From positions 1-64,000 of the IMG/VR virus record IMGVR_UViG_3300049141_000098: 64,000 bases of DNA; one strand, given 5' to 3'. How positions within the stretch are numbered: the first letter of the stretch is position 1; each line of letters begins with the position of its first letter. The position numbers and the translations under genes are program-made. The notes under the pieces were generated by a model. The model had not been told where the DNA came from and searched no databases. It worked only from the letters and a program-made list of their open reading frames with translations. Below are positions 49,254 through 64,000 of the stretch, in pieces. This stretch comes from a virus (taxonomy: Duplodnaviria; Caudoviricetes).

Positions 49254-49796
49254 CTACTCTGCCACGTCCTTTTCCAATGCGGAACTGATCAGATCCAGTT
49301 GACGAAACGCCAAGGTGAGAACGACCTCCCCGAGAGAGCCCAAGCCCAAGACTCGCTGCGCCTTCTTCAGATCTGCACTTCTCTCATGCACGAGTTGCTC
49401 GAATTGAATCTGCTTCTTCGCTAGGGCCACGACGTCGTTCATGGATTCCAAGCCCGCGCTACTTGCCGCCTTGCGGACCTGAACCTGCTCCATCGCCAGC
49501 GGCACAAGTTCGTCCGTAGATTCAAAACCTGCACCACTCGCGGCTGCTTCAAGACTGCTCTGCTTCTTTGCCAGGACGATCAGTTCGTCCACGGACGCCG
49601 ATGCATCGGCTCTGGAGCTTACGATCTCTTGAACTTGACACTGCCTCAGGGACAGGGCCCTGATCACATCCACCTCGTACTTGAGGCCCAACTCCTTCTG
49701 CGCCTCTTTGATTTGATGCATCTCCGTCGGAGTCCATCGGATAGCGGTTCGTTCACTACGGACCTCTGCGTCCGACTCCCTGCTTCGTCCAGCCAT
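49254..49796 (-). CDS. Ribbon-helix-helix DNA-binding protein (CopG/MobC-like) with internal repeats
   Basis: 'RTAIRWTPTEMHQIKEAQKELGLKYEVDVIR'; GAAGGAGG RBS; repeated 'DELxxLAxxQ...AAxxAGxES' units. Confidence 0.6.
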   Translation of the reverse strand: MAGRSRESDAEVRSERTAIRWTPTEMHQIKEAQKELGLKYEVDVIRALSLRQCQVQEIVSSRADASASVDELIVLAKKQSSLEAAASGAGFESTDELVPLAMEQVQVRKAASSAGLESMNDVVALAKKQIQFEQLVHERSADLKKAQRVLGLGSLGEVVLTLAFRQLDLISSALEKDVAE

Positions 49797-49813
49797 GCCC
49801 CCTCCTTCCTGGT

Positions 49814-49866
49814 GGCCTAGGTCAATCATACGCACGAATGGCAGCCATTCGCAATGGCTGCCATTC
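49814..49866. promoter_or_regulatory. Promoter of the RHH gene with a GGCCTAGGTC operator variant and two tandem AATGGCWGCCATT palindromes
   Basis: - strand TTGCGA-18 nt-TATGAT; palindromes at 49836-49850 and 49853-49866. Confidence 0.65.
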
Positions 49867-49895
49867 AAGGGATGCGACCCAGCCCCCCGGGAGGT

Positions 49896-50312
49896 TCAGT
49901 TCTCGTACTGCCGCCCTGGGCTGGAGGTCAGGGCGAAGACCACCGCGAGAGCTGCGATGACTGCGTTGACCAGGGAGTATGTGAGGAAGGCGGCGACGCC
50001 GCTGACGCCTGCCACGATCCACATGCCCACATAGAGACGGTAGTCATGCACCTTGTGCTCGACGACTTCCTCGCGGATGTAGGGCGACTCCTGCTGGATG
50101 CGGGTTGTCAGCTCGTAGTCCATCTCGCGGGCGCGCACGGTCGCCTCGGGCCCGTGGGCGCTTGCTTCTGGTGGCAGGCGTGCAGAATCCGCGCCGGTTG
50201 CGTGCTCAACGGGGGTGTAACCCTGCGTTGGCACAGTGCGGGTCTCCAGGCGCGCAGAAGCCAGAGTGCGACGTGACCGTGCACCCCATACCTCATCCTT
50301 CTCGTAAGTCAC
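49896..50312 (-). CDS. Membrane protein with C-terminal TM helices
   Basis: Hydrophobic C-terminus; start uncertain. Confidence 0.5.
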   Translation of the reverse strand: MTYEKDEVWGARSRRTLASARLETRTVPTQGYTPVEHATGADSARLPPEASAHGPEATVRAREMDYELTTRIQQESPYIREEVVEHKVHDYRLYVGMWIVAGVSGVAAFLTYSLVNAVIAALAVVFALTSSPGRQYEN

Positions 50313-50412
50313 TGCTGTCGCATCACCTTTCCCTCCACTTCCGAACTCGATTGTGCGGCATATGGCCGCAGTCTGCAAAGCATCAAGTAGCCCGACCGGA
50401 GCCGGGTTTCTG

Positions 50413-51201
50413 TCACAACTGCAAGAACACCAGCAGCGCGTTCGCTGCCAGGGAGACGCCGATGGCGGGCCCCTTCTCCCGCGAAGAGCCGGAGGTCACC
50501 GCCCGGCCTAACAGCCGAATGCTCCACCAGCGTTTGCCCTGGATGGGGATGGGCCAGAAGGCGGGCACGCCGCCCTTCGTGCAAGCGTCGGCCACGATGT
50601 GACTCAGGTAGCCCCCCGCAGCAGCAAGTGCCATCAGCCATGGATTCAGCAGGAGTGCGCTTCCCGCAGCCGTCATTGCGGCGCCGATCACGACCAAACC
50701 GGCCGCCCCTCGATGTAGGGGTCGGAGCAGGAAGACGCCAAACGCAGCCGCGAGTGCAGCGGTGATGGGGCCAGCGAAGGTCAGAATGTAGGCCATCACG
50801 CCAACCATCAAGCTGGCAGCAATGGTGTGGGTGAGGGTGCGGTGGTAGGGATCCCTCCATCGTCTCGCCCGAGCCCACTCGATGGAGGCCAGATCGCGGT
50901 GTGTTCCGGTGCTGCGGTACACCCCCGAGCACACTTTGTGAACGACCTTGTGGGCAGCACCCCCAAGTGCCCGGTCGGCCGCCGCGTTGCGGCAGTCGAT
51001 GTCGGGAAGCAGAGAGTATCCGGCGGATACCGCCGCCATCGCGACACCCTGAAAGATCGTTACGTGTTGCGTAATGACAAGACCAATCGGTGTCGACGCC
51101 CCGATTGCCGCGTGCACAGACCCTTTCACCCCAACACCTGCCGCTTCAGCGTGGCCTCCTCCTGTGTTGCCCGAGATGGTGAGGTGCAGCATGGAGTCCA
51201 T
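50413..51201 (-). CDS. YdjM-like membrane metal-dependent hydrolase
   Basis: 'SLLPDID', 'HRTLTH' and 'GYLSHIVADACT..GVP'; start uncertain. Confidence 0.8.
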   Translation of the reverse strand: MDSMLHLTISGNTGGGHAEAAGVGVKGSVHAAIGASTPIGLVITQHVTIFQGVAMAAVSAGYSLLPDIDCRNAAADRALGGAAHKVVHKVCSGVYRSTGTHRDLASIEWARARRWRDPYHRTLTHTIAASLMVGVMAYILTFAGPITAALAAAFGVFLLRPLHRGAAGLVVIGAAMTAAGSALLLNPWLMALAAAGGYLSHIVADACTKGGVPAFWPIPIQGKRWWSIRLLGRAVTSGSSREKGPAIGVSLAANALLVFLQL

Positions 51202-51366
51202 CGCCCTTCCTTGGCGCGCCAGCCGCGACCGAGGCACCAGGGGCACGGCCGACCCCTCCGGCAGTTCGCGCAGAAGGATCGGGTGCTCTTTATGGCGGTG
51301 CAGCCGTCACAGTCCGATTCGGGTGGGCTGATGCTTGTGTATCGGACGGCGCTCTGTTCGCTCACG

Positions 51367-51684
51367 TCAGTTCCCCCAGCCGTTTCCGTCGAGCACTGTG
51401 TAAACCTCTTTCCGATATCCGAGGGCGACTATCGACTTGCCTGGAATGAAGATCACTCGCAGTTTGTCGTGGGCAACTTTCCATGGGAGTGCGCCGAAGC
51501 GACCACGCGTGGCCTGGCCGTTGGTCATTCGAACGCTCCCCCGGGGCGTCTCCCCTGTCAAGATTTGATCAACCAGTCTCTGAATCCGCTTGGCTGCCTG
51601 CGCGTCAGTCTTGTGAAGCTTCTTCAAAGCTCGTCTTGCAACCGGCTCAATCTCAACCCTTGCAGCCACACCCGTTCCTGACAC
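51367..51684 (-). CDS. RelE/ParE-like toxin
   Basis: 'VEIEPVARRALKKL...AKRIQRLVDQI...LRVIF...VALGYRKEVY'. Confidence 0.65.
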   Translation of the reverse strand: MSGTGVAARVEIEPVARRALKKLHKTDAQAAKRIQRLVDQILTGETPRGSVRMTNGQATRGRFGALPWKVAHDKLRVIFIPGKSIVALGYRKEVYTVLDGNGWGN

Positions 51685-51752
51685 AGCTTCTCTTCCTTTC
51701 CAAATACAGAAGGCGGCCGAAGCGATGCGCTCCGGCCGCCCATGGCGCTGCT

Positions 51753-52220
51753 TCAGGCCTTCTGGTTCTCCTCGTGCTCGGCCCACAGTTCGCTGAAGGT
51801 CTTGCCGTCGTCCTCAGAGAGCGAGATCTCCGTGCTCTCCGAGATGGACTTGCCCGCCTTGGCCTCCTGGACCCGGCGCAGGCGGCTCTTGGCCCGCTCC
51901 GTTGTGCACTTGGTCTTGATCGCCAGCGAAGTGACGGGGTCCTGGTCGCGCGCCACGGCTTCGTCGTGGATCCGGGTCCACTCAGGCAGATCCTTGCGAA
52001 GGGACGCCTCCGCCAGTTCGACCGCGTGCGGATGCCGGTCCTTGGTGTCCTTGAGAAGGAGCTTGAAGATCTCCCGCTCGATACCCTCGTTGCTGCCGTC
52101 CTCAGCGCGAAGCGTCGCCTCGAAGCTGCGGAGGACCAGGTAGATGGCGCCCTCTCGGGAGACGCCGAGCTTCTGCATCTCTGCCTCCAGGAGGGCCGTC
52201 GGACTGTCGGGCATCTTCAT
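51753..52220 (-). CDS. Putative antitoxin
   Basis: Directly upstream of the RelE-like gene; acidic C-terminus 'DGKTFSELWAE'. Confidence 0.45.
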   Translation of the reverse strand: MKMPDSPTALLEAEMQKLGVSREGAIYLVLRSFEATLRAEDGSNEGIEREIFKLLLKDTKDRHPHAVELAEASLRKDLPEWTRIHDEAVARDQDPVTSLAIKTKCTTERAKSRLRRVQEAKAGKSISESTEISLSEDDGKTFSELWAEHEENQKA

Positions 52221-52273
52221 GCTGTTCTCCCATGTGATTCGATATGGCGGGGTGTTGACTGAGCGGATCTCGT

Positions 52274-52879
52274 CTACAGGCCAACTCGCGTGGCCCCGTA
52301 GTAGTCAGGCATGTAGTGGACCTTGTCGACTCGGATGAGGGTGCCGGTCCGGGGGGCGTGCAGCATCTTCCCGTCGCCTACATAGATGCCCACATGGTGA
52401 ATCGACCGCCAGTTGCCCTTCTGTCCGAAGAACACCAGGTCGCCCGGTTGCAGCTCGTTCCAAGCGGGGTGGACGTCGGTCGTCTTGTACTGGTCATTGG
52501 CCACGCGAGGCAGCCTGACGCCAGCTTTCGCATACGCCGCCTGGGTCAGCCCTGAGCAGTCGAACCGGCCGCCCTGGGCCGACGAACCCGTGCCGCCCCA
52601 GAGGTAGGGCACGCCAATCTTCGTCTTGGCGTATGCGATGGCCACGGCTGCGGCATCCCCCGAGCGGGAGCGGGAGACGCTTGAGGCGTCCTCCTCCTGC
52701 TGATCGGCTTCCTGCCGCCGCCTCTCCGGGGAGTACCAGTTGACCTCCTCGATCGCCGGGTTGTCGTTGGCCTTAGCGTTCGAGATGGGTGCGGCTTTGA
52801 GGGCCGCGCAGGACGTCATGATGGGCGTGAGTAGGGCCGCCGAAGCGACTGCGGCGATCACGCGCGGGGCTCGATTCAC
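52274..52879 (-). CDS. NlpC/P60 peptidoglycan endopeptidase, predicted lipoprotein
   Basis: 'PYLWGG...FDCSGL', 'PGDLVFF', 'HHVGIYVG..MLHAP'; signal peptide ending 'MTSC'. Confidence 0.9.
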   Translation of the reverse strand: MNRAPRVIAAVASAALLTPIMTSCAALKAAPISNAKANDNPAIEEVNWYSPERRRQEADQQEEDASSVSRSRSGDAAAVAIAYAKTKIGVPYLWGGTGSSAQGGRFDCSGLTQAAYAKAGVRLPRVANDQYKTTDVHPAWNELQPGDLVFFGQKGNWRSIHHVGIYVGDGKMLHAPRTGTLIRVDKVHYMPDYYGATRVGL

Positions 52880-53511
52880 CGCTCGTACTTCCTCGTCTTC
52901 CGCTCGATCATCTTCACGTACGTGTAGGTCTCGCAGTTAGCGAAGGAGCAGGGCGGGACGCCGCCGTACTGCTTCACCCGGAAGCCGCCCGCGTTGTATC
53001 CGGCGAGCATGTTCTTCCAGGTCGGGCCCGGCACGTCCTTCAAGCCCTTGGCCAGCTTGCAGTCGAACGTGGCGGCAGACGGGATGGCATCTTCGGGGTC
53101 GTACTTGTTTCTCTTGCCGTCCCCGTTGGCGTCGATCCCCTCCGTAGCCCAGGTCGAGTCGATGAACTGAGCCATACCCTTGGCGGAGGCCGGGGAGTTC
53201 AAGCGCCCGTCGATGACCTCCGGCTTGAAGTTCATGCTTTCCTGCTCAAGCTGGGCCGCGAGCAGTGCAGGGGTTAGCGTCTTGCACTTGTTGCCCCACT
53301 TGTTCACCAGCTCTTCCCACCGCTTCTTCGGCAGGGATCCTTCGCGGATCTGGGCACTGGAGCCAGTGAACTTGTAGCCCTGTTTTGCCTCAGGCTTCGC
53401 GACTGGAACCGCGTTTGCGGCGGACGGCACTGCCGGGATGAAACCTGTGATTGCCTGCACCGCTCCCGTGGCCAAGAAGATGCCAACGAAGGCGCCTCCA
53501 GCCCTACGCAT
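52876..53511 (-). CDS. Secreted lytic transglycosylase (SLT/GH23)
   Basis: 'LAAQLEQES', 'AKGMAQFIDSTW' and 'LAGYNAG'; signal peptide; GTGA coupling to NlpC/P60. Confidence 0.85.
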   Translation of the reverse strand: MRRAGGAFVGIFLATGAVQAITGFIPAVPSAANAVPVAKPEAKQGYKFTGSSAQIREGSLPKKRWEELVNKWGNKCKTLTPALLAAQLEQESMNFKPEVIDGRLNSPASAKGMAQFIDSTWATEGIDANGDGKRNKYDPEDAIPSAATFDCKLAKGLKDVPGPTWKNMLAGYNAGGFRVKQYGGVPPCSFANCETYTYVKMIERKTRKYER

Positions 53512-53551
53512 TCCCTTCTCCTTTCCTTGTAGCTGACACCACCATAACAAC

Positions 53552-53561
53552 GGCCTAGGCC
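53552..53561. promoter_or_regulatory. GGCCTAGGCC operator candidate within the spacer of the SLT promoter
   Basis: - strand TTGTTA-aatGGCCTAGGCCgttgt-TATGGT (18-nt spacer). Confidence 0.7.
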
Positions 53562-53628
53562 ATTTAACAAGGTGGTTCAGCACGGGACTTGAGGCAAGGA
53601 GGGTTTCCAGGCCGGGCCGGGAAACGCC

Positions 53629-53665
53629 GAAGCGGCTCACCTCCGCGAGGGAGGCGAGCCGCTTC
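53629..53665 (-). terminator. Hairpin after the 53674 gene
   Basis: GAAGCGGCTC / GAGCCGCTTC inverted repeat. Confidence 0.55.
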
Positions 53666-53673
53666 GAAGCCGT

Positions 53674-54267
53674 TCAGCCGATGTGCAGCAGCTGAGGGAT
53701 CCAGTGGCCGACGTTGAAGGTGATCTCGGAGAACGTGCCGCCTCCGAGGGGAAACACCAGGCCGCAGACGGCCCCGTAGGCCAGATCCTTCATGTCGTCA
53801 TCCCGGTTCCGCAGCGACAGGAGGACCAGGATGAAGCACAGGCCCGCCGCTCCGATGTCCGCCAGGATAGGAAAGCCCGACAGGGAGAGGATCAAATCCT
53901 GAACCCACTGGGCGAGGCTCAGCACCGCGCCCGGCTGACTGCTCAGGATGGCGGTCATGCCGAAGAGGCCGAACATGAACGTCATGAGGGACTTCCAGTC
54001 GAGCCCCTCGCTGTCGTTCCGCTTGGACAGGTTGTCCATGAGCCTCTTCGTGGTATCCCCGATGAGACGGTCGCCGAGCGAGACGAAGAGAGGGCCCCAG
54101 GGGCCCATCGGAACCATCTCGCCGGAGCCCCGACGCTTGCGGCCCCGGATGAACCAGGCCGACATGACGAGCAGGATGATGCCGACGCCAGCCATGGACA
54201 TGTGGCCGACCCAGGATGTCTCCGGGACGTCGACCTGCTGCTGTTGGACTACCGCCAGGGTGTTCAC
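53674..54267 (-). CDS. Polytopic membrane protein (putative transfer/spread function)
   Basis: Four hydrophobic segments; AAGGAGAAGAAAG RBS. Confidence 0.65.
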   Translation of the reverse strand: MNTLAVVQQQQVDVPETSWVGHMSMAGVGIILLVMSAWFIRGRKRRGSGEMVPMGPWGPLFVSLGDRLIGDTTKRLMDNLSKRNDSEGLDWKSLMTFMFGLFGMTAILSSQPGAVLSLAQWVQDLILSLSGFPILADIGAAGLCFILVLLSLRNRDDDMKDLAYGAVCGLVFPLGGGTFSEITFNVGHWIPQLLHIG

Positions 54268-54476
54268 CTTTCTTCTCCTTTTCGGTGTGGAGCGCTGGGC
54301 TTGGCGCCCCCTGCTCTTACTTGCCGTGTGTGGGCGTCAGGATCGGCAGGTCGTTGTTGTTGTTGCGCATCTCGTTCTTTCTCCTTTCCGAGCGTTGGCC
54401 CGCAGGCCACGCTTAGCGCGCTCCGGCCGTTGTGAGGCGGCACCGCACCCATAAGGTGCGTCGGAGGCTTGATGCA

Positions 54477-55436
54477 TCACCAGGCTGCATCCGGTGCGTT
54501 GAGTAGAGCGCCTGAGATGATCGAGGCGAGTGGGATCATGAGGATCGCGTGGAAGAGACCGGGCCCCATCTTGCTGCTCCGCTCCAACTCCTCCTCCGAC
54601 ATGGCCTGCCGGGCGTGGTAGAGCTTTTCCATGCGATCAAAGACCCACATCGTGCAGTAGTAGGCCGCGCAGAACAGGCCAGCGACCCAGATTTGCCACC
54701 ACCCCAGCGTCCACGGCTGGCCGAACCAGGCCGTGATGTAGTCCGGGTAGGCCACGCCCACCAGGAAGGTGGCCGGGACCATCCAGGGCAGCCTGGTCAG
54801 CCACTTAACGGCGAGTTCGGCTGCCTTGCCGTAGTAGGGCGATCGCTTGATGTGCTCGACCGCCGCGCTTCTGAAGCTGAACAGGACCATGGGTGCGAGG
54901 CCAAGACAGATTGCCGCGATGAGGCCGACCGTCTGACCCGTCTCACTGGCCATCCGTAACGTGTCCCGGAACCATCGCCCAGGCCCCTGGAGGAGGCCCC
55001 AGTCGATGGTGCTGGTGCCGTAGCGGATCCGTTCATAGGCGGCGGCCAGAAGGAACTGCGGGCCAACAGCCCAGGACGCAGCCACCGAGATCATGAACGA
55101 GGTGACGTACGGCCTCGTCTTTCCGTTCTTCGGAGCGAGAGTCCTTCTGACGGCCTTGATGACCGGTTGTACCGTCTCGCGGGCGACCTCTCCCTCTCTA
55201 CTGACTTTCTGCTTGGCGGGAGCCAGGATTTCTCCCGCTTCCCGGCGGATGTTTTGCTTCTTTCCCTCAGCCGATTTCCTCGCGTCCACCCACTTGGAGT
55301 GAGACGACGAGATCTTCCCCTTCAGGTTCTTGAGGTCCCCCTTCAGGGTGCGCGGTGGCTTCCGCGTCCCAGAGGGCTTCAGGTGCACATCAGGGTCATA
55401 CGTCGGCTTCGGCGGAGTCTTGACCGGCGCGGTCAC
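54477..55436 (-). CDS. Polytopic membrane protein with a basic N-terminal domain
   Basis: Lys/Arg-rich N-terminus followed by several TM helices; GGGAGGGAG RBS. Confidence 0.65.
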   Translation of the reverse strand: MTAPVKTPPKPTYDPDVHLKPSGTRKPPRTLKGDLKNLKGKISSSHSKWVDARKSAEGKKQNIRREAGEILAPAKQKVSREGEVARETVQPVIKAVRRTLAPKNGKTRPYVTSFMISVAASWAVGPQFLLAAAYERIRYGTSTIDWGLLQGPGRWFRDTLRMASETGQTVGLIAAICLGLAPMVLFSFRSAAVEHIKRSPYYGKAAELAVKWLTRLPWMVPATFLVGVAYPDYITAWFGQPWTLGWWQIWVAGLFCAAYYCTMWVFDRMEKLYHARQAMSEEELERSSKMGPGLFHAILMIPLASIISGALLNAPDAAW

Positions 55437-55496
55437 ATCTCTCCCTCCCGATGAGGAGTTTGGCCAGAAGTCCTTCCGATACCCTGCTCACGGATT

Positions 55497-55506
55497 GGCC
55501 TAGGCT
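55497..55506. promoter_or_regulatory. GGCCTAGGCT operator variant upstream of the 55436 gene
   Basis: 9/10 match, flanked by the direct repeat CGATACCCTG (55477 and 55509). Confidence 0.55.
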
Positions 55507-55652
55507 GGCGATACCCTGGAGAGGGTCAGTCCGTGAGAGGAGGTCGAACTTCGTCTGGAGCCCCGGAAGGTTCCAGTTCCTCCTCGTTTGCCATGCTGTG
55601 CGACGTCTGCCCTTCTTCGGCTGGCGTCGCGGACTCCAGCATGACACAATTC

Positions 55653-55662
55653 GGCCTAGGCC
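55653..55662. promoter_or_regulatory. GGCCTAGGCC operator candidate upstream of gntR
   Basis: Exact palindrome 23 nt before the GntR start. Confidence 0.7.
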
Positions 55663-55685
55663 ACAAGTAGAAGTGAGGAGAGAGC

Positions 55686-56420
55686 GTGAGCGAGCAAATC
55701 CCCAAGTTCCGGTCTATCGCGCAGAAGTTGAGGTCTCAGGTGACCTCCGGAGCGCTGGCGCCCGGTACCCCCCTCGCGTCGCGTCGAAGGCTTGCGAAGG
55801 ATTTCCAGACGTCGCGCGTCACGATCGACAAGGTCGTTGAGCTGCTGACAGCGGAAGGAGTTTTCGAGCCTTCCGACGGCAATCGACCACCAGTTGTTGC
55901 GGATATCTCGCAACGAGTCGTCAGCGTGCAGGACCGGGTGGACAGTCATGCCACCAACGGTCGGGCGTTGCGAGCCAATGAGGTCTCGAAGATCTTGTCG
56001 GTCGAGAAGACGCCATGCCCAGCCGACATCGCCCCCTTGCTCGGCGTCGCTCCGGGCAAGGAGGTTCTTTGCCGAACCCGACTGAACCTGGTCGACGACC
56101 ATCCGGATGCCACGGGCTACTCCTACTACCCACCGGAGGTGGTGGAGTTGGTGCCGGAGCTGGCACAGCCCGAATCCCTCCCCGAGGGCTCCCGGGAGTT
56201 GGTGAGCGAACGCATGGGGTCCCGGCAGAAGTACCGAAGGGACATCGTCACGTCTCGTCTGGCCACCGATCGGGAGCGTGAACTTCTCCAGTTGGGTGGC
56301 ACCTTGAATGTCGTGACACAGGACATGCGCCATGTGACCCTGGCCAACGGCAAGGTCATCGAGGTGGCCGTAAAGATCACCGAAGGAAACCGTCCGATCT
56401 CGTTTCTCTCGGAGCTGTGA
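55686..56420 (+). CDS. GntR/HutC-family repressor with UTRA domain (KorA/TraR-like)
   Basis: 'FRSIAQKLRSQVTSGALAPGTPLASRRRLAKDFQTSRVTIDKVVELL' wHTH plus a UTRA-like C-terminus; divergent from the transfer-like genes. Confidence 0.9.
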   Translation: MSEQIPKFRSIAQKLRSQVTSGALAPGTPLASRRRLAKDFQTSRVTIDKVVELLTAEGVFEPSDGNRPPVVADISQRVVSVQDRVDSHATNGRALRANEVSKILSVEKTPCPADIAPLLGVAPGKEVLCRTRLNLVDDHPDATGYSYYPPEVVELVPELAQPESLPEGSRELVSERMGSRQKYRRDIVTSRLATDRERELLQLGGTLNVVTQDMRHVTLANGKVIEVAVKITEGNRPISFLSEL

Positions 56421-56459
56421 AGCCTGACGGCGGTCAGCAGGACGCCGCTTTACGACGAA

Positions 56460-56505
56460 GGGCCCGGTTGCAGGGAGGCCACAACCCTGCAACCGGGCCC
56501 GTTTT
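56460..56505 (+). terminator. Intrinsic terminator between convergent genes
   Basis: 16-bp perfect inverted repeat GGGCCCGGTTGCAGGG / CCCTGCAACCGGGCCC followed by GTTTT. Confidence 0.8.
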
Positions 56506-56512
56506 GTTGCGC

Positions 56513-57256
56513 TCAGGGGACGTGGTCGAGCTTGAAGGCGTCGTCGCCACGCGCCAGCTCCTCGCGCATCTCCTCGTACTGCCAAAGATGTCCCTGAGGG
56601 TGGAGCCAGACCAGCTCCTCCATGTAGGCGGGAAGCTTCTCGCCTTGCATCTCCAGGGGGATGTGCAGGCACTCTGACGGTCCGACCCCGTACAGCCAAG
56701 TGAGGGCGCCGAATCCGATGAAGTGCCGCTGACCACCAGACGTGACGTAGCCGGGGCAGACGGCATACTTCTTCCCCGCTACGTCCTCGGGCCGGAACTC
56801 TCGATCAGGCGGGTCGCCAGGTTCTGCAACTCGTCGGCGATCCTCTCGGCGTCCCTCGCTCCGTATCGATCCTCGATGCTCTCCTGCCACCCGCTGGCCA
56901 GGGCGGACTCCAGGATCAGTCCGGCGCGGAACTTCGCTTCCCGCTTCGCCTGCCTGCCATCCATCGGGGATGGGCCTCCACTTTCTATCAGTCTTCCTGC
57001 GTTCAGGGTCCCAAAGAGCTGGCCCTCCCGCCCGGATCCAGCTCCGTACGTCCGCCAGACTAGGGGCGACCAGCACCTGCCACCGGGTCCACCTGTCCAG
57101 TCCGACACTGAATCGGGTGTCGCGCACTGTCCAGTACTGCGGCTTCGACGACCCGCAGTACTCGGGTTCGACCACGAGGTGACTGTGCCCGGAGATCTCG
57201 TAGTGCAGGTCGTCAGTCCGATCGCTGCCCCGACGGTGCAGCAGAGGCTTCGTCAC
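56513..57256 (-). CDS. Hypothetical protein, possibly a fusion of two small genes
   Basis: GTGA-coupled start; GC3 strong in the C-terminal part but poor where it overlaps 56779-56964. Confidence 0.4.
   Translation of the reverse strand: MTKPLLHRRGSDRTDDLHYEISGHSHLVVEPEYCGSSKPQYWTVRDTRFSVGLDRWTRWQVLVAPSLADVRSWIRAGGPALWDPERRKTDRKWRPIPDGWQAGEAGSEVPRRTDPGVRPGQRVAGEHRGSIRSEGRREDRRRVAEPGDPPDREFRPEDVAGKKYAVCPGYVTSGGQRHFIGFGALTWLYGVGPSECLHIPLEMQGEKLPAYMEELVWLHPQGHLWQYEEMREELARGDDAFKLDHVP
56779..56964 (-). CDS. Small hypothetical protein nested in another frame
   Basis: GGAGG RBS, ATG, strong GC3. Confidence 0.5.
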   Translation of the reverse strand: MDGRQAKREAKFRAGLILESALASGWQESIEDRYGARDAERIADELQNLATRLIESSGPRT

Positions 57257-57594
57257 GGCCGTTCCAGGAAGTACCACTCATCTCCGTCAAAGCGAAGGTC
57301 GCCGAAGTCGGTTCCGATCGTGACATCGCCCGAGCTGTGTGCGGTCACTGCGGCATCCCCCTGCGTGGTCAGCAGGTTCAGACCAGAAGCAAGCACATTG
57401 CCCAGCTCTCTGCCTTGGGACATGGGGTCATCTCCAGCGACCAGCTCGGCCATCGCGGCTTCCACGTCTTTCGTCAGTGACCTGCTGGAGCCGAGCCTTG
57501 CGAGTTCCTTCTCCGCCTTGTCGACGATGAGCCACAGCTCCGCAACACGCGCATTGCGCTCCGCCCTGTTCACGCTTTCCCCTCTCCGTGTCAA
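57253..57594 (-). CDS. Hypothetical protein
   Basis: Coupled to both neighbours by 4-nt overlaps. Confidence 0.5.
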   Translation of the reverse strand: MTRRGESVNRAERNARVAELWLIVDKAEKELARLGSSRSLTKDVEAAMAELVAGDDPMSQGRELGNVLASGLNLLTTQGDAAVTAHSSGDVTIGTDFGDLRFDGDEWYFLERP

Positions 57595-58292
57595 CCCTCG
57601 TCGCTCACAGCCACCAGATCTCCCGAGAGGTCCAGTAGAGCTACCTGGTGTGGAGCTGTCTTCGTGGAGAACTCGACCGTACCTTCGACGACTTCGCCGG
57701 GTTCGATGGCCCGCAACCCGGGGGCCAACGTACCCTCGCCGACAATCGCTGGGCGACCGTCACCCTTCACCATCGTGGCAAGCACGGTCACCTGTTCGTC
57801 AGTGCTGTTGCGGATGGTCACCTTCATGACAACGCCGACTTGCCCTTTGCCCGCAGGGGTGGCCGAGAGCGTGACAACCTTCGCCGTCGGCTGCCCAGGT
57901 GGAGGGGTTGCCCTCGATGGACTCTGCGCCGGACCTTCTCCTGCGGCTGGGAGGTCTTCACCAGAAACACCTCCGCCAGCAGGGGGAAGGTCTGCACTCT
58001 GACTGGTGGATGTGGTGGCGGGGGACTTCCCCTCCTGCTCGCTTCCGTCAGTCGCGGCGTTGAGGAACAGTGAGCCCACGATGACCGCGCCCGCCACGCC
58101 GCCGACTACCTTCACGACCCTGCCCCGAGAATTGCCAGAGGTGGGGGCGTCCGGCTTGTCGCTGTCCGGCTCTTCCCGCGTGGGGTTGACCGGAGGCTGC
58201 GAAGGTTGAGGGAGCGCCGCTATGGGCGGTGCGATCGACTCCTTGATGCCTTCGCCCGTGGCGGGCTGCGTACTCCACCAGTCGGTAGTCAT
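57591..58292 (-). CDS. Membrane-anchored protein with a Pro-rich linker and Ig-like C-terminus
   Basis: One TM helix 'VVGGVAGAVIVGSLFL'; beta-rich C-terminus. Confidence 0.6.
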   Translation of the reverse strand: MTTDWWSTQPATGEGIKESIAPPIAALPQPSQPPVNPTREEPDSDKPDAPTSGNSRGRVVKVVGGVAGAVIVGSLFLNAATDGSEQEGKSPATTSTSQSADLPPAGGGVSGEDLPAAGEGPAQSPSRATPPPGQPTAKVVTLSATPAGKGQVGVVMKVTIRNSTDEQVTVLATMVKGDGRPAIVGEGTLAPGLRAIEPGEVVEGTVEFSTKTAPHQVALLDLSGDLVAVSDEG

Positions 58293-58926: not shown

Positions 58927-58963
58927 ACAAATGAAGCCCCCTCTTTGAGGGGGCTTCATTTGT
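58927..58963. terminator. Bidirectional terminator-like hairpin
   Basis: 17-bp perfect inverted repeat ACAAATGAAGCCCCCTC / GAGGGGGCTTCATTTGT with a 3-nt loop. Confidence 0.8.
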
Positions 58964-58973
58964 TGAGACACGC

Positions 58974-60089
58974 TCAGTCGGACGAATTTACCAGCCAGTC
59001 CGCGAGATTGTTCTCGATGAACCACTCACGCGGGAAGCTGGTCGTGGCCTCCGACAGTCGAGAAGGGTGCTTGATCTCGTTGGCGGAGCAGAAGTCGATT
59101 CGCTTAACGCCACCCAGGGCGTAGTCCGCTGCGTAGTAACGGCGAGCCAGTTCCGCCTTCCGTGCCTGAGGTTCAGACAGGCCCAGCGCCATCAGCTCAA
59201 TGAGTGAGGCGTCAACCCCATCGGATCCCGTCAGGGCCGGACGGGAAGCGGGGTTGACGACCTGACCGGAGATCATGCGTGGGCGACGAAGACTCATTTC
59301 CCAATCATGGTCGTCACGCATCCGGTCAACATTCGCGCGGGAGGACAGCTCAGCAATTCGGAGTTCCTCCTTCAGGCTGATGTCCAGCGCCTTGAGTCGA
59401 TTCTCCTGTCGCAGCTCCAGCTCCTTCAGCTCGAAGTCGCTCTGCTTCTTCAGGAGCTTGCGCTCGCCCTCGGCCCGCTCGTCCTCCAGGATGCGGTCGT
59501 TCTCACGGCGTCGGGCTTCCATCTCGGCCTTGTGCTTCTCCTCTGTAGCCTTGATCTTCTCGAACTCGACGTTGGCCGCGCGCCTCGTCTCATTGATTTC
59601 GCGCATCTCTTCGTCGGTCGGCGCGACGGGGTCACGCAGATCATCGAGCGCCAGCGACCACGTGAACTTCGTGGCGAGCGGCAGGATCGCAGTGAAGGCC
59701 GCCGTCCAGCCGCCAAGCTCATGGCCGTGGTAGCCGAGCATTGCGGCGACTGCGACTGCTTCGACCCAGCCGATGAACGGGAGAATGTTCCTCGACGTCC
59801 CCTTCGCGCCCCAGCCCGTCCACATGATCTTTTTGCCCTGGTACTCGGCCACCATCGTGGCGCTCCAGAAAACATCCATCGCCGCTGCGGCCGACAGGCC
59901 GACGAGGCTCAGGCCGCCGAGCCTCTCGATGGGAACTGCGGTGACCTGGTTCAGGTCCAGGAACGACCACGTCGAGTAGGCGAGCGATCCGAGGGACATG
60001 AAGCAGGCGAGGCCTACCAGGAAGCTGAACCTGCGCTTCATGTCCTTCTTCTCGGTTTGAGGATTCGTCTCGTTCACCGTCTCAGCCAT
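58974..60089 (-). CDS. SpdB-like membrane protein (TM helices plus a long coiled coil)
   Basis: N-terminal TM helices then an E/R/K-rich coiled coil, the architecture of Streptomyces plasmid spread proteins. Confidence 0.6.
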   Translation of the reverse strand: MAETVNETNPQTEKKDMKRRFSFLVGLACFMSLGSLAYSTWSFLDLNQVTAVPIERLGGLSLVGLSAAAAMDVFWSATMVAEYQGKKIMWTGWGAKGTSRNILPFIGWVEAVAVAAMLGYHGHELGGWTAAFTAILPLATKFTWSLALDDLRDPVAPTDEEMREINETRRAANVEFEKIKATEEKHKAEMEARRRENDRILEDERAEGERKLLKKQSDFELKELELRQENRLKALDISLKEELRIAELSSRANVDRMRDDHDWEMSLRRPRMISGQVVNPASRPALTGSDGVDASLIELMALGLSEPQARKAELARRYYAADYALGGVKRIDFCSANEIKHPSRLSEATTSFPREWFIENNLADWLVNSSD

Positions 60090-60139
60090 CTTGCCGTTTC
60101 TCCCTCTTTCCGAAAGTGCCCGTGGGGGCGACATGCACG

Positions 60140-60184
60140 ACTTTTCCAGATGGCCTAGGCCGTGTCAAGCGAACCTGGAAAAGT
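60140..60184. promoter_or_regulatory. Promoter of the SpdB-like gene with GGCCTAGGCC (60152-60161) next to TTGACA
   Basis: - strand TTGACA-cGGCCTAGGCCatctgg-AAAAGT; flanked by a 10-bp inverted repeat ACTTTTCCAG / CTGGAAAAGT. Confidence 0.7.
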
Positions 60185-60334
60185 TCGTTCCAGAAGACGT
60201 TCTGTCCGTTTCGCTAGCTTCGAAGGGGTTAGCGGCGTCTTGCGGTGCCTCAATGCACCCCTTCGTCCGTTTCACCCACTGAACCACCTATCTTCTTTCG
60301 GCAGGTTCCAGTGAGATGGAAGCCCTTCCGTCTC

Positions 60335-60766
60335 TCAGGAAGACGGGCTGCGACGAAACAGACGTGAGAGGAAGCCCTTTCGCGCCCCACCATCCTCGGT
60401 GGAAGTCGCAGAACCCGATGAAGTCGCTGGTGTGGTGGACGAAGGGAGGTCTCCTGTCCGGTTCTGACCCGATTCGCCGCCTGGAACATCCGAAGAACCG
60501 CCGCCCAGGAGGCGAAGATCGAGGGCGTATATGTTCGCCCCCCGCAGTCCGTTGACCGAGAAGCCGGGCTCGGTGCGCAGCAGGCCCCGCTGGGTCAGTT
60601 CAGTGCGAGCGCGCACCAGGGCACCCTGCGTGAGGCCAGAGGCTTTCAGAAGAGCTGTCGTGGGCACTTGCGCCCGGCCCGCGCCATCGACGCGGTCCAG
60701 GAGAGTCTCAAGCAGCTTTCCTGCCTCGTAACCGAGGATGCTGCGGTCGAATGTCACGTCAGTCAT
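60335..60766 (-). CDS. Winged-helix DNA-binding protein
   Basis: 'TTALLKASGLTQGALVRARTELTQRGLL' HTH plus a wing. Confidence 0.6.
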   Translation of the reverse strand: MTDVTFDRSILGYEAGKLLETLLDRVDGAGRAQVPTTALLKASGLTQGALVRARTELTQRGLLRTEPGFSVNGLRGANIYALDLRLLGGGSSDVPGGESGQNRTGDLPSSTTPATSSGSATSTEDGGARKGFLSRLFRRSPSS

Positions 60767-60865
60767 GGGGGTGCCTTTCCGGGTAGGACCTGTCGGTGAT
60801 CAGGGTACGCAGAAGGGACGCTGGAACCATGTCCAGCGCCCCTTCTGGTGAGCTGCGCTCGCGAC

Positions 60866-62347
60866 CTACTCGTCTTCCGCATCCGCCCAGGGGTCGCGCC
60901 CCAGCCAGTTCGCGATAGTCGTCTTGCTGACCCCCAGCATCAAGCCAGCACTTCGCTGGCTCTGCCGGTTGGCAGGAACCTCCCTCCTGACCCACTCGAT
61001 CGCGTTCCTGCGCGCCGCTTCCTTCTCCTCCTCCGACACGTTCGGCATGCCCTGAAGAGCCCGGTAAACGAGTACCGCCGGGTCGATCCCGGAGGAGCCC
61101 TTCTCCTCGCCAGGGGGCTCGGGAACCTGGTGAGATTCCGGCCTAGAGGTGGCATCAGGTTCCGGCTCCGGAGCCGCCTCAGGTTCCTCCTCCGGCTCAA
61201 CGTCGGGTTTCGTGAGGAACCAGTCGCCTGCCATGGGGGCTTCGGTTACCTCGTAGGGCCCCTGCTCAGCCTGGAGTTCGGACGTTTCCGGTGGGGTGAC
61301 CACATCCTTGTCGAGGCTGACCTGCGGAAATAGCTCCTCCTGGATGGGGTTGGTTGCCACCGTGGTGACCGCTTCTCCGTGCGGGGCCAGCTCGGCGCCG
61401 TTGTCACCTTCCGTGACCGTGAGAGAAGACCACTCTGGACGGCTCGGGGTGGTGTTGATTGCCACCTGGTCACCTGCTCTGACCTGGGGATTTCCCCTTT
61501 CGTCGAAGGAGGGGATGACCGGGTTGCCACCCGATTTCGCAGCGGCCAGAGGGACGGTCGGATTGTCCAGCTCCAGTGCGTCCGGAATCTGGGGGTTTGC
61601 CCCCTCTGATCCAAGGTCTCTGGCCGGACGTGTTGCCACCTGGACAAGGGTCTTCATATCCCCGTGGTCACCCCGTCCGACCTGCACAAAAGGGCTTTCG
61701 GAGGCCTCCTTGTGAGCAGTCTCGGCGAGAGGGGTGACCACCTGGGTGGCCAGATCAGAAGAGATCTGTGACGTTTGATCGCTTACGTCCGGAATGTCAC
61801 CCGGGGTGACCACCTCGGTTTCTGAAGACGTCTCGCTGACCTGCTGGTTTTCCAGCACCTCGGTGGGTGCTTCCGGAGCGGGGTCCACCTTGGTCTCCCG
61901 CTCGGAATCGTCACTACGCGTACCCAAGTCCGGGAGATCGGCCCATGGTTCCTCACGGCCGAGACGACGCTCCCGAGCGGACAGGAAGGCCAGGCCTCCC
62001 AGCGCCACCAGTACCGCAGTGAGAAGGGCCTGCCAGACACTGATCTGCCGACCACCCCGCTCGGGGCCGCCAGTGACTGCGCTGAGCACGATCCAGAGCG
62101 GCGCCAGAACGACGGCAGCTCTCATCAACTTGACCCAAGGACCCCTGGGGATGCCGTCCTCGTCAGGCTCCAGGACCCAGTTCTTGGCGCCGTGCAGCCC
62201 ACGCCGAAGCATGAGGCCGACGCCTCTACGGCCATGTTGCACCTCAACGGAGCGACTGATGCCAGCCATCCGAGGTGGGGCGGTCCTTGCCATCTTTCCT
62301 TCTCCTTTCCGGCGACCCGAGGTGTCCGGGCTCATCGTTTGTTCCAT
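60866..62347 (-). CDS. Two-TM membrane protein with a long acidic linker and C-terminal HTH
   Basis: Two TM helices, P/E/T-rich region, 'SQRSAGLMLGVSKTTIANWL'. Confidence 0.65.
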   Translation of the reverse strand: MEQTMSPDTSGRRKGEGKMARTAPPRMAGISRSVEVQHGRRGVGLMLRRGLHGAKNWVLEPDEDGIPRGPWVKLMRAAVVLAPLWIVLSAVTGGPERGGRQISVWQALLTAVLVALGGLAFLSARERRLGREEPWADLPDLGTRSDDSERETKVDPAPEAPTEVLENQQVSETSSETEVVTPGDIPDVSDQTSQISSDLATQVVTPLAETAHKEASESPFVQVGRGDHGDMKTLVQVATRPARDLGSEGANPQIPDALELDNPTVPLAAAKSGGNPVIPSFDERGNPQVRAGDQVAINTTPSRPEWSSLTVTEGDNGAELAPHGEAVTTVATNPIQEELFPQVSLDKDVVTPPETSELQAEQGPYEVTEAPMAGDWFLTKPDVEPEEEPEAAPEPEPDATSRPESHQVPEPPGEEKGSSGIDPAVLVYRALQGMPNVSEEEKEAARRNAIEWVRREVPANRQSQRSAGLMLGVSKTTIANWLGRDPWADAEDE

Positions 62348-62536
62348 CTCCCCCGCCCGGCTCGACCCACCAAGTCGATGCCTTTACGCTGGCGGCACCT
62401 GGCGGGTCACCGCACTGGTCGCAAAGGCCACGAGCCCGGTTCCACCTGTTTCCTCGTTGGCCCGAGAGGTGGTTCGGGGCTCGTGGCATCCTCATGTCGG
62501 CAAGCTGCCACCACAAGGGTGGTCCGCTTCCGACTC

Positions 62537-62749
62537 TCACCCAGCCGTTGCGCCCATGAGGAGCTTGAAATCGGGCGAACCGGGCTGAACCTCCTTGAAC
62601 CGGCGGCAGGAACACTTGATCCGGCGCCCGCTGGATTCATTGCCGAGGTTCTTGGTGCAGGCCGTCTTGGGCCCCTCATCGTGGGTGCCGTTGTGACAGC
62701 CCCTCAGGTGGGTGCACCGTTGGCACCGCATTGCGTCACGTGCGCTCAT
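62537..62749 (-). CDS. Small Cys/His-rich protein
   Basis: 'CQRCTH...CHNGTH...C...CSCRRF'; GTGA coupling. Confidence 0.5.
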   Translation of the reverse strand: MSARDAMRCQRCTHLRGCHNGTHDEGPKTACTKNLGNESSGRRIKCSCRRFKEVQPGSPDFKLLMGATAG

Positions 62750-62997
62750 CGCCCCTCCTTGTGTGCCCTGTTGCTGCGTTCCAGGCTGCTCACGACGTGA
62801 TCAAGGCACCCTTGACCGAAGCCAGGGATGTCCAACAGATCACCGTAGGTCGCCGCCTTCAGGCGAGACGGCGTGCCGATTCCGTACCTGATGAGGCAGT
62901 TCACGATGCGCGTCGCAAGCGCGCCATACCCCAGGATTTCGTGCAGACCGGCGCGGTCGATCGAGGGACGACCTCCCGCGCCAGCGCCCCTCATCAC
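62746..62997 (-). CDS. Stand-alone RNA polymerase alpha-CTD-like (HhH) protein
   Basis: 'LATRIVNCLIRYGIGTPSRLKAATYGDLLDIPGFGQGCLDHV' aligns by eye with the alpha-CTD pattern 'LSVRxxNCLKRxGIxTxxxL...LLxxxNFGxKSLxEI'. Confidence 0.7.
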   Translation of the reverse strand: MMRGAGAGGRPSIDRAGLHEILGYGALATRIVNCLIRYGIGTPSRLKAATYGDLLDIPGFGQGCLDHVVSSLERSNRAHKEGR

Positions 62998-63338
62998 TGC
63001 ACAGCCTCCTCGTCGCCCCAGGTACGCCCCTGATAGTCCTTGTGATCCGTCTCGGGGTAATGACCGCGCTCCTCCTCGCAAACCCCGTTGTGTTCGGCGT
63101 TCTCGGACATGCAGTCCAGCAGTACGCCGTGCTCCTTGAAGGCAGCCACGACGGCGGGCTCATCCTCGTAGAGACCGAGGGAGGCGTCAGCGTTGTCCCA
63201 GTGCAGCTCCAGCAGGCCTTTCACCAGCTTTGACGCGATCCGCTGTAGGGCGGCGTCGCTGATCTGCCCCTTCAGGGGGAGTAGTTCGTCTATCACGGGC
63301 TCGAAGACCAGATCACCGGCCTCGTACTTGGCACCCAC
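62994..63338 (-). CDS. Hypothetical protein
   Basis: GTG immediately after the upstream stop; GC3 bias. Confidence 0.55.
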   Translation of the reverse strand: MGAKYEAGDLVFEPVIDELLPLKGQISDAALQRIASKLVKGLLELHWDNADASLGLYEDEPAVVAAFKEHGVLLDCMSENAEHNGVCEEERGHYPETDHKDYQGRTWGDEEAVQ

Positions 63339-63339
63339 G

Positions 63340-63588
63340 TCAGCCCTCCATCGGCTCGTCGAAGCAGACGATCGTCTGTTTGGCCAGGCGACTTTCCCGA
63401 CCCGTCCGCATGTTCCGGTAGACCCGCAGGAGCTGGCGCGCACTCTGCTCGAAGTCCCCGGAGAGCCCTGGTGTGTTGTCGTTCTCCGTGCGCCACGATT
63501 CGTTCTCATCCGCGCGGGACTGGATGGCCCATCGCACAGACTGGATAGCAACCTCGGCGTTGGCAGGGATCTCGCCCTTACTGACCAC
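63340..63588 (-). CDS. Hypothetical protein
   Basis: GAAAGG RBS. Confidence 0.5.
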   Translation of the reverse strand: MVSKGEIPANAEVAIQSVRWAIQSRADENESWRTENDNTPGLSGDFEQSARQLLRVYRNMRTGRESRLAKQTIVCFDEPMEG

Positions 63589-63641
63589 AGTTCACCTTTC
63601 CGAAGGTTCTTCTAGTTGTTCGCCCTGGAATGCAAGGTGAA

Positions 63642-64000
63642 CTAACGCTTCACCTCGGCGTAATAGGCCTTGGGTGGTCCGGCGGTGTACTCCGAGATCG
63701 GGGCGAGCACAACCCGCTTGCCTCGGTAACTGCCGGAGTTGGCGTTCCACATCCAGCCCTTGCCATCCTTCCAGCCCGCATAGATGCCGACGTGGTAGAT
63801 CGAGCGGGAGGAGGTGCCGATGAAGACCAAGTCGCCCACCTTGCGGCTGGAGGCGTTGACCTTGGCGAGCTTGTCGTACTGCCCCTGCGCGGTGCGCGGC
63901 AGCGTCCTGCCGTGGCGCTTATAGGAGTAGTAGATGAGGCCTGAGCAGTCGAAGGCGTCGGGGCCCGCCGCCTTGGGGCGATAGGGGTCGTTCTTCTGGG
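63642..64000 (-). CDS. Second NlpC/P60 protein (5' end outside the window)
   Basis: 'GPDAFDCSGLIYYSY', 'LPRTAQGQY', 'GDLVF' and 'YHVGIYAG'. Confidence 0.85.
   Translation of the reverse strand, partial: QKNDPYRPKAAGPDAFDCSGLIYYSYKRHGRTLPRTAQGQYDKLAKVNASSRKVGDLVFIGTSSRSIYHVGIYAGWKDGKGWMWNANSGSYRGKRVVLAPISEYTAGPPKAYYAEVKR

Follow-up and report, generated by a model that had tools for sequence, protein, structure and literature searches.

A conserved module with SpdB-type, KorA-like and wall-enzyme genes in a 260-kb Streptomyces phage related to Satis

The DNA analysed here is a window of 64,000 nucleotides, positions 1 to 64,000 of the IMG/VR virus record IMGVR_UViG_3300049141_000098 (Duplodnaviria; Caudoviricetes), and the stretch under study lies at 49,254 to 64,000 of this window. 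The original prediction, made from the letters alone, read this stretch as a plasmid-like transfer and maintenance region joined to a full tail module, and the whole as a probable conjugative plasmid-phage. Our results place it differently. The genome is, with good support, that of a jumbo siphophage of Streptomyces; it is complete at 259.5 kb and represents a larger relative of phage Satis (cluster BM). Gene content and order identify the flagged stretch as a conserved non-structural core module of this phage lineage, located near the replication genes. Rather than a plasmid region joined to a tail module, it is thus a core block of a Satis-like jumbo phage, kept also where the genes for ParA and a recombinase are absent. 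Reading the module together with a TraB-type motor and a partition cassette found elsewhere on the genome, we tentatively propose, at slightly less than an even chance, a phage function modelled on plasmid spreading, which would combine a membrane-protein and wall-enzyme complex with a TraB-like motor, GntR control and partition.

The window corresponds to bases 1-64000 of a single 259,646-bp contig, and thus to the first quarter of the whole genome. The first 127 bases of the contig recur at its end, giving a circle of 259,519 bp, so that the suggested check for circularity or terminal repeats came out positive; genome search returned the record as an IMG/VR virus entry with direct terminal repeats, rated 100% complete. 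The GC content of the full genome is 63.6%. Our own gene calls on it numbered 393, and the 10 tRNA genes all lie beyond the window (0 within it). The DNA polymerase shares 70-71% identity with its counterparts in seven Streptomyces phages, all between 184 and 200 kb and belonging to cluster BM: Satis (MH576962), Kradal, EhyElimayoE, Quantum, Frankenweenie (OQ921725), JustBecause (MH744418) and Kela. Protein-against-DNA comparison with the whole Satis genome matched 176 of the 393 genes in the same order, with identities of 79% for the terminase, 85% for the portal, 89% for the major capsid protein and 70% for the DNA polymerase. The virion gene set is complete (terminase, portal, protease, capsid, tape measure and tail genes), all with Satis matches. 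The genes at 10.5-22.4 kb match the Satis tail genes, and this collinearity identifies the "full tail module" as the phage's own tail block. Satis and JustBecause, on which cluster BM was founded, form plaques; they are siphoviruses with long prolate heads and terminal repeats of about 1 kb (PMC6687918).

The present genome is collinear with those of cluster BM over its whole length, hallmark proteins being 70-89% identical, but it exceeds them in size by 60-75 kb. The additional features are a ParA cassette with its four palindromes, an Xer-like recombinase, a block of 23 kb at the point corresponding to the ends of the Satis genome and another of 22 kb at 111-134 kb. In the public records of the cluster, most module genes are labelled "hypothetical protein" or "membrane protein".

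The conservation of the module was assayed by comparison with Satis and with more distant relatives. Genes between 49072 and 66530 match Satis gp87-117 in succession, with 37-77% identity. They are flanked on one side by the replication genes (helicase, primase, polymerase) and on the other by endolysin and holin-like genes at 66.6-69.3 kb. The module includes a 319-amino-acid (aa) membrane protein of a rare family, for which just 21 representatives were found at E 0.001 among 1.84 billion proteins. When the surroundings of six distant homologues of this protein (27-42% identical) were compared, gene order was identical wherever the contig was long enough: a 450-480-aa protein, an SpdB_N protein, a GntR+UTRA regulator on the opposite strand, the rare membrane protein, a gene of 167-221 aa, one or more wall enzymes, YdjM and, later, a UvrD-type helicase. 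The wall-enzyme slot is occupied in the relatives by SLT and/or by Peptidase_M23 or NlpC/P60. Since the type of enzyme varies while its place stays, a shared envelope function needing peptidoglycan cleavage is indicated.

The AlphaFold2 model of the 319-aa protein reaches a predicted local distance difference test score (pLDDT) of about 90 for a membrane bundle at residues 150-312, which is preceded by a long N-terminal helix (residues 35-100). This model gave no fold match in the PDB, and the protein had no usable match in the Atlas. The protein was also considered as a split-off N-terminus of Tra, as in a split TraB; the idea was not supported, the profile probability being below 1% both to the Tra N-terminus and to SpdB.

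The SpdB-like protein with membrane helices and a coiled coil that had been predicted was recovered at 58974-60089. PF27080 ("SpdB_N") is precomputed on 5 of 16 homologues of this protein, one of them 80% identical to it; PF27080 is outside the Pfam set used, and the assignment comes from the homologues. Alignment of the family profile with that of the pIJ101 SpdB family (hhalign) gave a probability of 77-80% (E 1.4e-5 to 2e-5), and three control comparisons all stayed below 1%. As pIJ101 SpdB itself found no match in the same Pfam set, the Pfam silence for the window protein carries little weight. All seven cluster BM records contain the gene. Among plasmids, its protein matched solely Streptomyces replicons, most of them of 85-94 kb, such as pSAM1 (NZ_CP012383). 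These replicons carry a terminase, and their SpdB-like protein is of the same subfamily (28-34% identical); its gene belongs to an operon that diverges from a GntR gene, and is followed by a VirD4-like gene and the terminase. In the regions compared, the phage and the pSAM1-type plasmids share three genes (GntR, SpdB-like and DnaB helicase), and the plasmids have a VirD4-like protein of 764 aa in place of the short TraB of the phage.

SpdB2 of pSVH1 has been reported to form an oligomeric pore and to bind DNA and peptidoglycan, and its homologues on actinophages were suggested to aid the spread of phage DNA (Thoma et al. 2015, PMC4447253). The temperate phages phiC31 and VWB, which have SpdB2 homologues according to the same study, likewise represent actinophages with an SpdB-family gene, a likeness drawn from description and not from sequence. 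Here, in contrast, the SpdB-like gene is part of a larger conserved module with GntR, wall enzymes and membrane proteins, and is accompanied by a TraB-type motor.

The window holds no TraB/FtsK gene, as the original prediction had stated, but a truncated TraB-type translocase is encoded on the same replicon, 24 kb from the SpdB-like gene. Outside phages, the proteins closest to it in sequence are the Tra/TraB DNA pumps of Streptomyces conjugative plasmids. Against pIJ101 Tra it scored E 8e-45 (phmmer), with conservation of the Walker A motif GTSGSGKS and of the DEG motif. In PLSDB it matched 14 records, 13 of which are Streptomyces plasmids, mostly of 7-16 kb and including pIJ101 (Tra, 33% identity); the 14th is a 5-kb record labelled Pseudomonas. 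The AlphaFold2 model has a pLDDT of 93.6, and its best PDB folds by Foldseek are TcpA (E 4e-15) and the FtsK motor (TM 0.6-0.68). In this model the last 55 residues make up a unit resembling a winged helix, with three helices and a hairpin at 377-431, and Pfam gives a weak winged helix-turn-helix (wHTH) match; plasmid Tra has a C-terminal segment longer by about 40 residues. In a large protein collection, the short form of 430 aa was found mostly on long contigs, up to 280 kb, and relatives of 610-660 aa (32-37% identical) mostly on contigs of 3-16 kb or small plasmids, or in chromosomes. Among phages, the translocase occurs solely in 20 Streptomyces phage records, and all cultured BM phages have it. 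When all 393 proteins were compared with pIJ101 and two other small plasmids (phmmer), only GntR-type proteins and the translocase matched, apart from one marginal match (E 0.0025) to the reverse frame of a rep gene. The likeness to the pIJ101 Tra/KorA/Spd system (NC_001387) comprises an FtsK-type double-stranded DNA motor, a HutC-type GntR divergent from membrane-protein genes and an SpdB-family coiled-coil protein.

The divergent GntR repressor of the original prediction was confirmed as a GntR+UTRA gene. The protein matches pIJ101 KorA with E 9e-19 and is 37% identical to the GntR of pSAM1; its solved relatives comprise six PDB matches (E 3e-10 to 1e-7), including NagR/YvoA and DasR. A candidate operator was found in the form of the palindrome GGCCTAGGCC (extended form YGGCCTAGGCCR). 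No other 10-bp palindrome of the genome comes near it in frequency: GGCCTAGGCC occurs in 20 exact copies, 18 of them intergenic, where a second-order Markov model predicts 0.29. Tolerating a single mismatch brings the number of intergenic sites to about 32, mostly at non-structural promoters and none in the virion block. Many of them directly follow a -35-like box, with a -10-like TAnnnT a few bases downstream, and a terminator-like hairpin often precedes them. Sites in the window are located at 32294, 39451, 49814, 53552, 55497, 55653 and 60152. They precede the genes of the SLT enzyme (53552), of the SpdB-like protein (60152) and of the 155-aa protein at 49254-49721, and beyond the window a copy with one central mismatch lies upstream of the three-gene operon ending in the TraB-like gene. 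Satis has five copies of GGCCTAGGCC against 0.16 expected. In the GntR control region of the relatives, the palindrome is kept in four; in a fifth, a variant (TTGCCTAGGC followed by G or T, then A) occurs twice. It was not found in the regions of pSAM1, an S. seoulensis plasmid, pIJ101 and an S. californicus plasmid that were compared with this control region.

Thus, GntR most likely binds the palindrome TGGCCTAGGCCA, present at about 30 promoters, and it likely acts as a genome-wide regulator of non-structural promoters and not as a dedicated Kor repressor of a kil/kor switch. The claim of Streptomyces plasmid-like transfer genes stands for the KorA-like GntR, the SpdB-family protein and the translocase beyond the window, but the role of the GntR looks genome-wide. 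The operator of the regulator DasR, dre, is TGGTCTAGACCA. DasR/NagR-type HutC regulators belong to the same subfamily by sequence, and the 12-bp palindrome of the phage differs from dre at two symmetric positions. Here, however, the regulator is phage-encoded and its predicted sites lie in promoter spacers across a 260-kb phage genome.

Plasmid traits were detected beyond the window. The gene of a ParA-type ATPase is followed by that of a 303-aa protein without any family match, and by the palindrome GTTGTATCGCGCGATACAAC in four copies, at 71215, 71250, 71886 and 73128 (span 71215-73147). Searching the rest of the contig for ParAB, as had been suggested, therefore yielded ParA with four palindromes, but no ParB_N protein in the genome. 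The absence of an integrase from the window was also stated correctly, but an Xer-like tyrosine recombinase is present on the same replicon. Its gene is preceded by a 91-aa gene and is divergent from that of a 227-aa protein, which has an XRE-type helix-turn-helix-like N-terminus by eye and no Pfam match; the block at 237413-240291 resembles a lysogeny or dimer-resolution block. No VirB4-type ATPase was found, the whole genome being free of AAA_10 matches.

ParA and the recombinase are missing from Satis, Frankenweenie and JustBecause, and the TraB-like gene is kept in all three. Since these cultured, plaque-forming relatives keep Tra/Spd-like genes, such genes are not tied to plasmid life. 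At the corresponding place, the ParA gene is also present in the Streptomyces sp. NPDC058947 assembly, on a contig of 252,977 bp, and two further Streptomyces isolate assemblies, those of sp. 5-10 and NPDC000927, have relatives on contigs of 272,101 and 279,965 bp. A Satis-sized relative occupies a 185,382-bp scaffold of S. cucumeris, on which there is no homologue of the present ParA. The sizes of these isolate contigs are those of whole phage genomes, which fits a separate replicon; carrier-state infection also fits. A plasmid-phage type is represented by pZL12 and its syntenic relative pSLE1, the latter encoding ParA and ParB (PMC4487206). A phage-plasmid (plasmid-prophage) lifestyle is plausible for the 260-kb member, which, with its partition cassette, can probably persist as a plasmid.

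Streptomyces grow as compartmented hyphae, and a virus in one compartment gains if its DNA reaches the neighbours. Plasmids reach neighbouring compartments via TraB and Spd proteins. In the mechanism that we propose, the SpdB-like protein, the other membrane proteins and the exported wall enzymes would form an envelope complex opening the peptidoglycan, most plausibly at hyphal cross-walls. The soluble TraB-like motor would dock on this complex and move double-stranded phage DNA between hyphal compartments, as Tra and Spd do for plasmids. Through TGGCCTAGGCCA placed between -35 and -10, GntR would repress the divergent promoters of its own control region as well as some 30 further non-structural ones. 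RpfB and RipA are a septal hydrolase pair of actinobacteria; the SLT and NlpC/P60 enzymes likewise pair a lytic transglycosylase-type enzyme with an NlpC/P60 one, here encoded by genes overlapping by 4 nt and both predicted to be exported, and the comparison is an analogy only. The homologies are solid, the spreading mechanism itself is a hypothesis, and phage spread or persistence without virions may take place but is unproven. A bolder version, in which the lineage would drive its genome of 180-280 kb across cross-walls, or into hyphae in contact, without virions, UTRA may sense wall amino sugars and the 250-280-kb members with partition genes would be self-transmissible, is held to be unlikely.

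Several observations weigh against a spreading function. The phage translocase aligns with Tra from just after the membrane segment, about 190 N-terminal residues being missing, and hydropathy analysis found no hydrophobic segment in it or in the product of the overlapping upstream gene; without a membrane helix, the motor alone cannot form the TraB membrane pore. Unlike in pIJ101 and pSVH1, the motor gene is unlinked from the GntR and SpdB genes, the spd operon not being next to traB, and the operator is genome-wide. No SpdA or KilB relatives were found when the proteins were compared with pIJ101 and other small plasmids. No cluster of at least four 8-mers within 300 bp, as expected of clt-like repeats, was found near 83-86 kb, although clt sequences differ between plasmids, so that absence of clt cannot be shown; elsewhere the 8-mer cluster search returned the peptide-coding repeat at 61354-61640 (the sole one in the window) and the partition palindromes. 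Nor was any over-represented, strand-skewed 8-mer found that could serve as a guide motif for the motor. The 319-aa membrane protein had no match in plasmids (tblastn), and the 448-aa protein and the small membrane protein at 53674-54267 matched nothing in plasmids either. The classical Tra/Spd system includes no wall hydrolases. Neither the exported SLT and NlpC/P60 enzymes nor YdjM nor the rare helical membrane protein has a counterpart in the plasmid system. As the operator is common to about 30 promoters, co-regulation of the module and the translocase is not specific, and we infer from position and family habit only that the operator belongs to this GntR rather than to one of two other GntR-like proteins (74389-74814 and 230504-231481). 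Finally, Satis has terminal repeats of 1 kb, and thus a circular assembly is no proof of a circular plasmid.

The main rival explanation is that these are ordinary lytic-cycle accessory genes. Hydrolases and membrane proteins would aid lysis, release or superinfection exclusion in thick-walled hyphae, the motor would act in the cytoplasm on replication or concatemer handling, without DNA transfer between compartments or cells, and the plasmid likeness would result from old gene exchange. This would agree with the module and the translocase being core genes of plaque-forming phages without ParA and recombinase, with a translocase predicted to be soluble, with a module sitting among replication genes (helicase, primase, polymerase) and with the failure to find a clt-like site. 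In addition, an FtsK-like protein was suggested to serve replication in a note on phage Geonosis (PMC11536984). However, the endolysin and holin-like genes at 66.6-69.3 kb are separate, indicating that the exported enzymes are not the main lysis cassette, and the SpdB-like, GntR and wall-enzyme genes have remained linked in deeply diverged lineages, even with a change of hydrolase type, which speaks for a single envelope function. The non-phage relatives of the motor, in PLSDB and among the named protein-search matches, are moreover conjugative translocases of Streptomyces plasmids or chromosomal elements. Chromosomal FtsK is not among them, the sole exception to the Streptomyces pattern being the Pseudomonas-labelled record. 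With both sides considered, the lytic explanation is judged somewhat unlikely.

A full conjugative plasmid-phage, in which plasmid maintenance and TraB-type mating between hyphae with pock formation would come besides virion infection, would explain the joint presence of a TraB-type motor, an SpdB-family protein and a KorA-like GntR, together with the ParA cassette, its four palindromes and the Xer-like recombinase. The relatives found as separate contigs of 253-280 kb in three Streptomyces isolate assemblies, and the SpdB-like gene common to terminase-bearing plasmids of 85-94 kb of the pSAM1 type, point the same way. Against mating stand a motor without the membrane-seating, pore-forming domain of TraB, the failure to find clt-like repeats near the motor gene, the lack of a VirB4-type ATPase in the genome, the equal presence of Tra/Spd-like genes in relatives without partition genes, and a literature in which no precedent was found for a 260-kb replicon transferred by the TraB route. 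Conjugation is unproven and quite unlikely, and full mating is the least likely of the spreading function, the lytic explanation and conjugation. The ParA cassette and the isolate contigs fit the plasmid side of the original prediction. Overall its interpretation is partly supported, its core idea gaining real support from genes beyond the window. The grouping of the genes might also be a coincidence of unrelated accessory genes without common function, as most proteins of the stretch have no family and the genes at 49254-49721, 56513-57573 and 62746-62994 have no Satis counterpart. This is very improbable: the core order is kept down to 27% protein identity in several lineages, identities of 27-42% exclude near-identical copies of one lineage, and the module genes share an operator.

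Regarding the spreading function that we prefer, a role of SpdB homologues in phage spread was suggested in 2015 and never tested, and no paper describing the present module or testing the phage spread idea was found. The stretch reveals a set of genes conserved throughout a whole lineage of Streptomyces phages of very large size, coding for an SpdB-type protein, a KorA-like regulator, a TraB-type motor and exported wall enzymes; some members of the lineage also have plasmid partition genes and are found inside cultured strains. The cultured relatives Satis and Frankenweenie make the idea directly testable. Were it true, the phage biology of filamentous bacteria would gain a virion-independent way of spreading, and the distinction between phage, plasmid and conjugative element would become less sharp; were it false, the module would still represent an unannotated, conserved envelope system of jumbo actinophages.

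Table. Features of the flagged stretch and of the plasmid-like loci beyond the window (positions on the contig; aa, amino acids).
Feature	Position	Strand	Basis
58-aa small DNA-binding-like protein	49072-49248	-	60% identical to Satis gp87, annotated "helix-turn-helix DNA binding domain protein"
155-aa protein ("RHH protein" of the original prediction)	49254-49721	-	No Satis match, no Pfam/PHROG family
112-aa protein, C-terminal membrane helix	49896-50234	-	Hydropathy; 70% identical to Satis
YdjM-family membrane protein, putative membrane-bound metal-dependent hydrolase	50413-51201	-	PF04307, E 5.6e-16, 59 bits (cut-off 29)
155-aa cytoplasmic protein, no family match	51753-52220	-	42% identical to Satis
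Exported NlpC/P60 peptidoglycan endopeptidase (predicted)	52274-52879	-	PF00877, E 1.3e-26; 76% identical to Satis gp96
Exported SLT-type lytic transglycosylase (predicted)	52876-53511	-	PF01464, E 9e-10; signal-like N-terminus; 77% identical to Satis gp97
197-aa membrane protein, 2-4 helices	53674-54267	-	Hydropathy
319-aa helical membrane protein, rare unnamed family	54477-55436	-	Equivalent of Satis gp99; always divergent from GntR gene
Divergent control region	55437-55685	.	Two GGCCTAGGCC-type palindromes: 55497-55506 (one mismatch), 55653-55662 (exact)
HutC-subfamily GntR regulator (wHTH + UTRA), KorA/TraR-like	55686-56420	+	PF00392 + PF07702
Two genes, 254 and 106 aa	56513-57573	-	No Satis match; first: only a PHROG of unknown function
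233-aa single-pass membrane protein, extracytoplasmic beta-rich C-terminal part	57591-58292	-	Hydropathy; partial Satis match; no family
Two small conserved proteins, 69 and 105 aa	58289-58878	-	48% / 54% identical to Satis gp103 / gp104; no family
SpdB-family membrane protein, 371 aa	58974-60089	-	Equivalent of Satis gp105; 3-4 N-terminal helices, charged coiled coil, C-terminal domain
143-aa conserved protein, no family match	60335-60766	-	50% identical to Satis gp106
448-aa membrane protein	60866-62212	-	Hydropathy and sequence: two N-terminal helices, acidic disordered middle, HTH-like end
82-aa protein resembling the RNA polymerase alpha subunit C-terminal domain	62746-62994	-	PF03118, E 4.9e-6, 26.6 bits (cut-off 23.8)
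Two small genes, 114 and 82 aa, likely the "TA-like pair" of the original prediction	62994-63588 (62994-63338, 63340-63588)	-	No family
Second exported NlpC/P60 endopeptidase (predicted)	63642-64124 (past window end at 64000)	-	PF00877, E 8.5e-18; signal-like N-terminus; 58% identical to Satis gp112
ParA-type ATPase	69438-70334		CbiA and MipZ matches over cut-offs
Truncated TraB/pIJ101-Tra-type translocase, 433 aa	83646-84947	-	Equivalent of Satis gp143, annotated "FtsK-like DNA translocase"
Xer-like tyrosine recombinase, 368 aa	239185-240291		SAM-like N-terminal domain; nearest XerC/XerD, below their cut-offs

Several further gene assignments of the original prediction were upheld. The secreted SLT and the two NlpC/P60 enzymes match their families, and all three wall enzymes display N-terminal hydrophobic export signals in their sequences; the NlpC/P60 protein at 52274-52879 has its signal followed by a Cys at about residue 24, and it is the start of this gene that overlaps the SLT gene. 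The YdjM-like hydrolase was recovered with PF04307, at a position kept in every relative examined. Membrane proteins were likewise recovered, hydropathy placing membrane helices in the products of six further genes: 49896-50234, 53674-54267, 54477-55436, 57591-58292, 58974-60089 and 60866-62212. The place of 53674-54267 is taken by the gene of 167-221 aa in all relatives examined, and in relatives that of 60866-62212 by a gene of 450-486 aa.

Most small genes of the stretch matched nothing in Pfam, PHROGs or NCBIfam. Two assignments were accordingly not confirmed: the putative ribbon-helix-helix (RHH) protein at 49254-49721 has no match in any of these three collections, and the candidate toxin-antitoxin (TA)-like pair has no Pfam family. 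The sole domain match of the 58-aa protein at 49072-49248 is a weak one to Rv2175c_wHTH (E 0.0023), below the cut-off. Upstream of the 49254-49721 gene there are a promoter-like TTGCGA-18-TATGAT at 49854-49825 and the operator variant at 49814; both favour the ATG start at 49721 over a 204-aa form starting with TTG. The 82-aa protein resembling the alpha subunit C-terminal domain could be a decoy or adaptor for host transcription factors. At its position, a relative has an 83-aa gene with a faint HHH_5 match.

The 448-aa protein has a long, acidic, disordered middle part with GNPxIP repeats and weak helix-turn-helix (HTH) matches at residues 417-440; its Atlas model has a pLDDT of 0.46 and gave no Atlas lead. 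At the DNA level, four same-strand copies of GTTGCCACC occur within 290 bp at 61354-61640, and the 8-mer core TTGCCACC is found nine times in the genome on both strands. As these copies coincide with the GNPxIP repeat, a role of the DNA is not separable from the peptide repeat.

Other features of the genome have no or partial Satis counterparts. The 23-kb block at 210458-233625, without Satis counterparts and exactly at the position of the Satis genome ends, opens with about 3.8 kb free of called genes; ten of its proteins were compared with Pfam, which recognised a RAMA domain and the second GntR-type protein (230504-231481) only; a replication initiator was not among them. Within the tail-region block of the window, five genes (3958-5133 and 8837-10201 on the plus strand, 5140-8541 on the minus strand) have no Satis counterpart or a distant one, and one of them has a weak TPR match. 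A 615-aa protein at 32297-34144 (minus strand) matches the Satis Cas4-family exonuclease over just 26% of its length and shows weak LAGLIDADG/homing-endonuclease matches at residues 318-373, which may reflect an intein or endonuclease insertion. Set among the replication genes, a 1197-aa gene at 35805-39398 (minus strand) has a strong coding signal and no Satis counterpart. Directly past the window end, a YAcAr (SLOG-family) protein is encoded at 64258-64737 (minus strand). Finally, a 535-aa protein at 80411-82018 (minus strand) is 72% identical to the Satis "Ro-like RNA binding protein", with two tRNA genes downstream.

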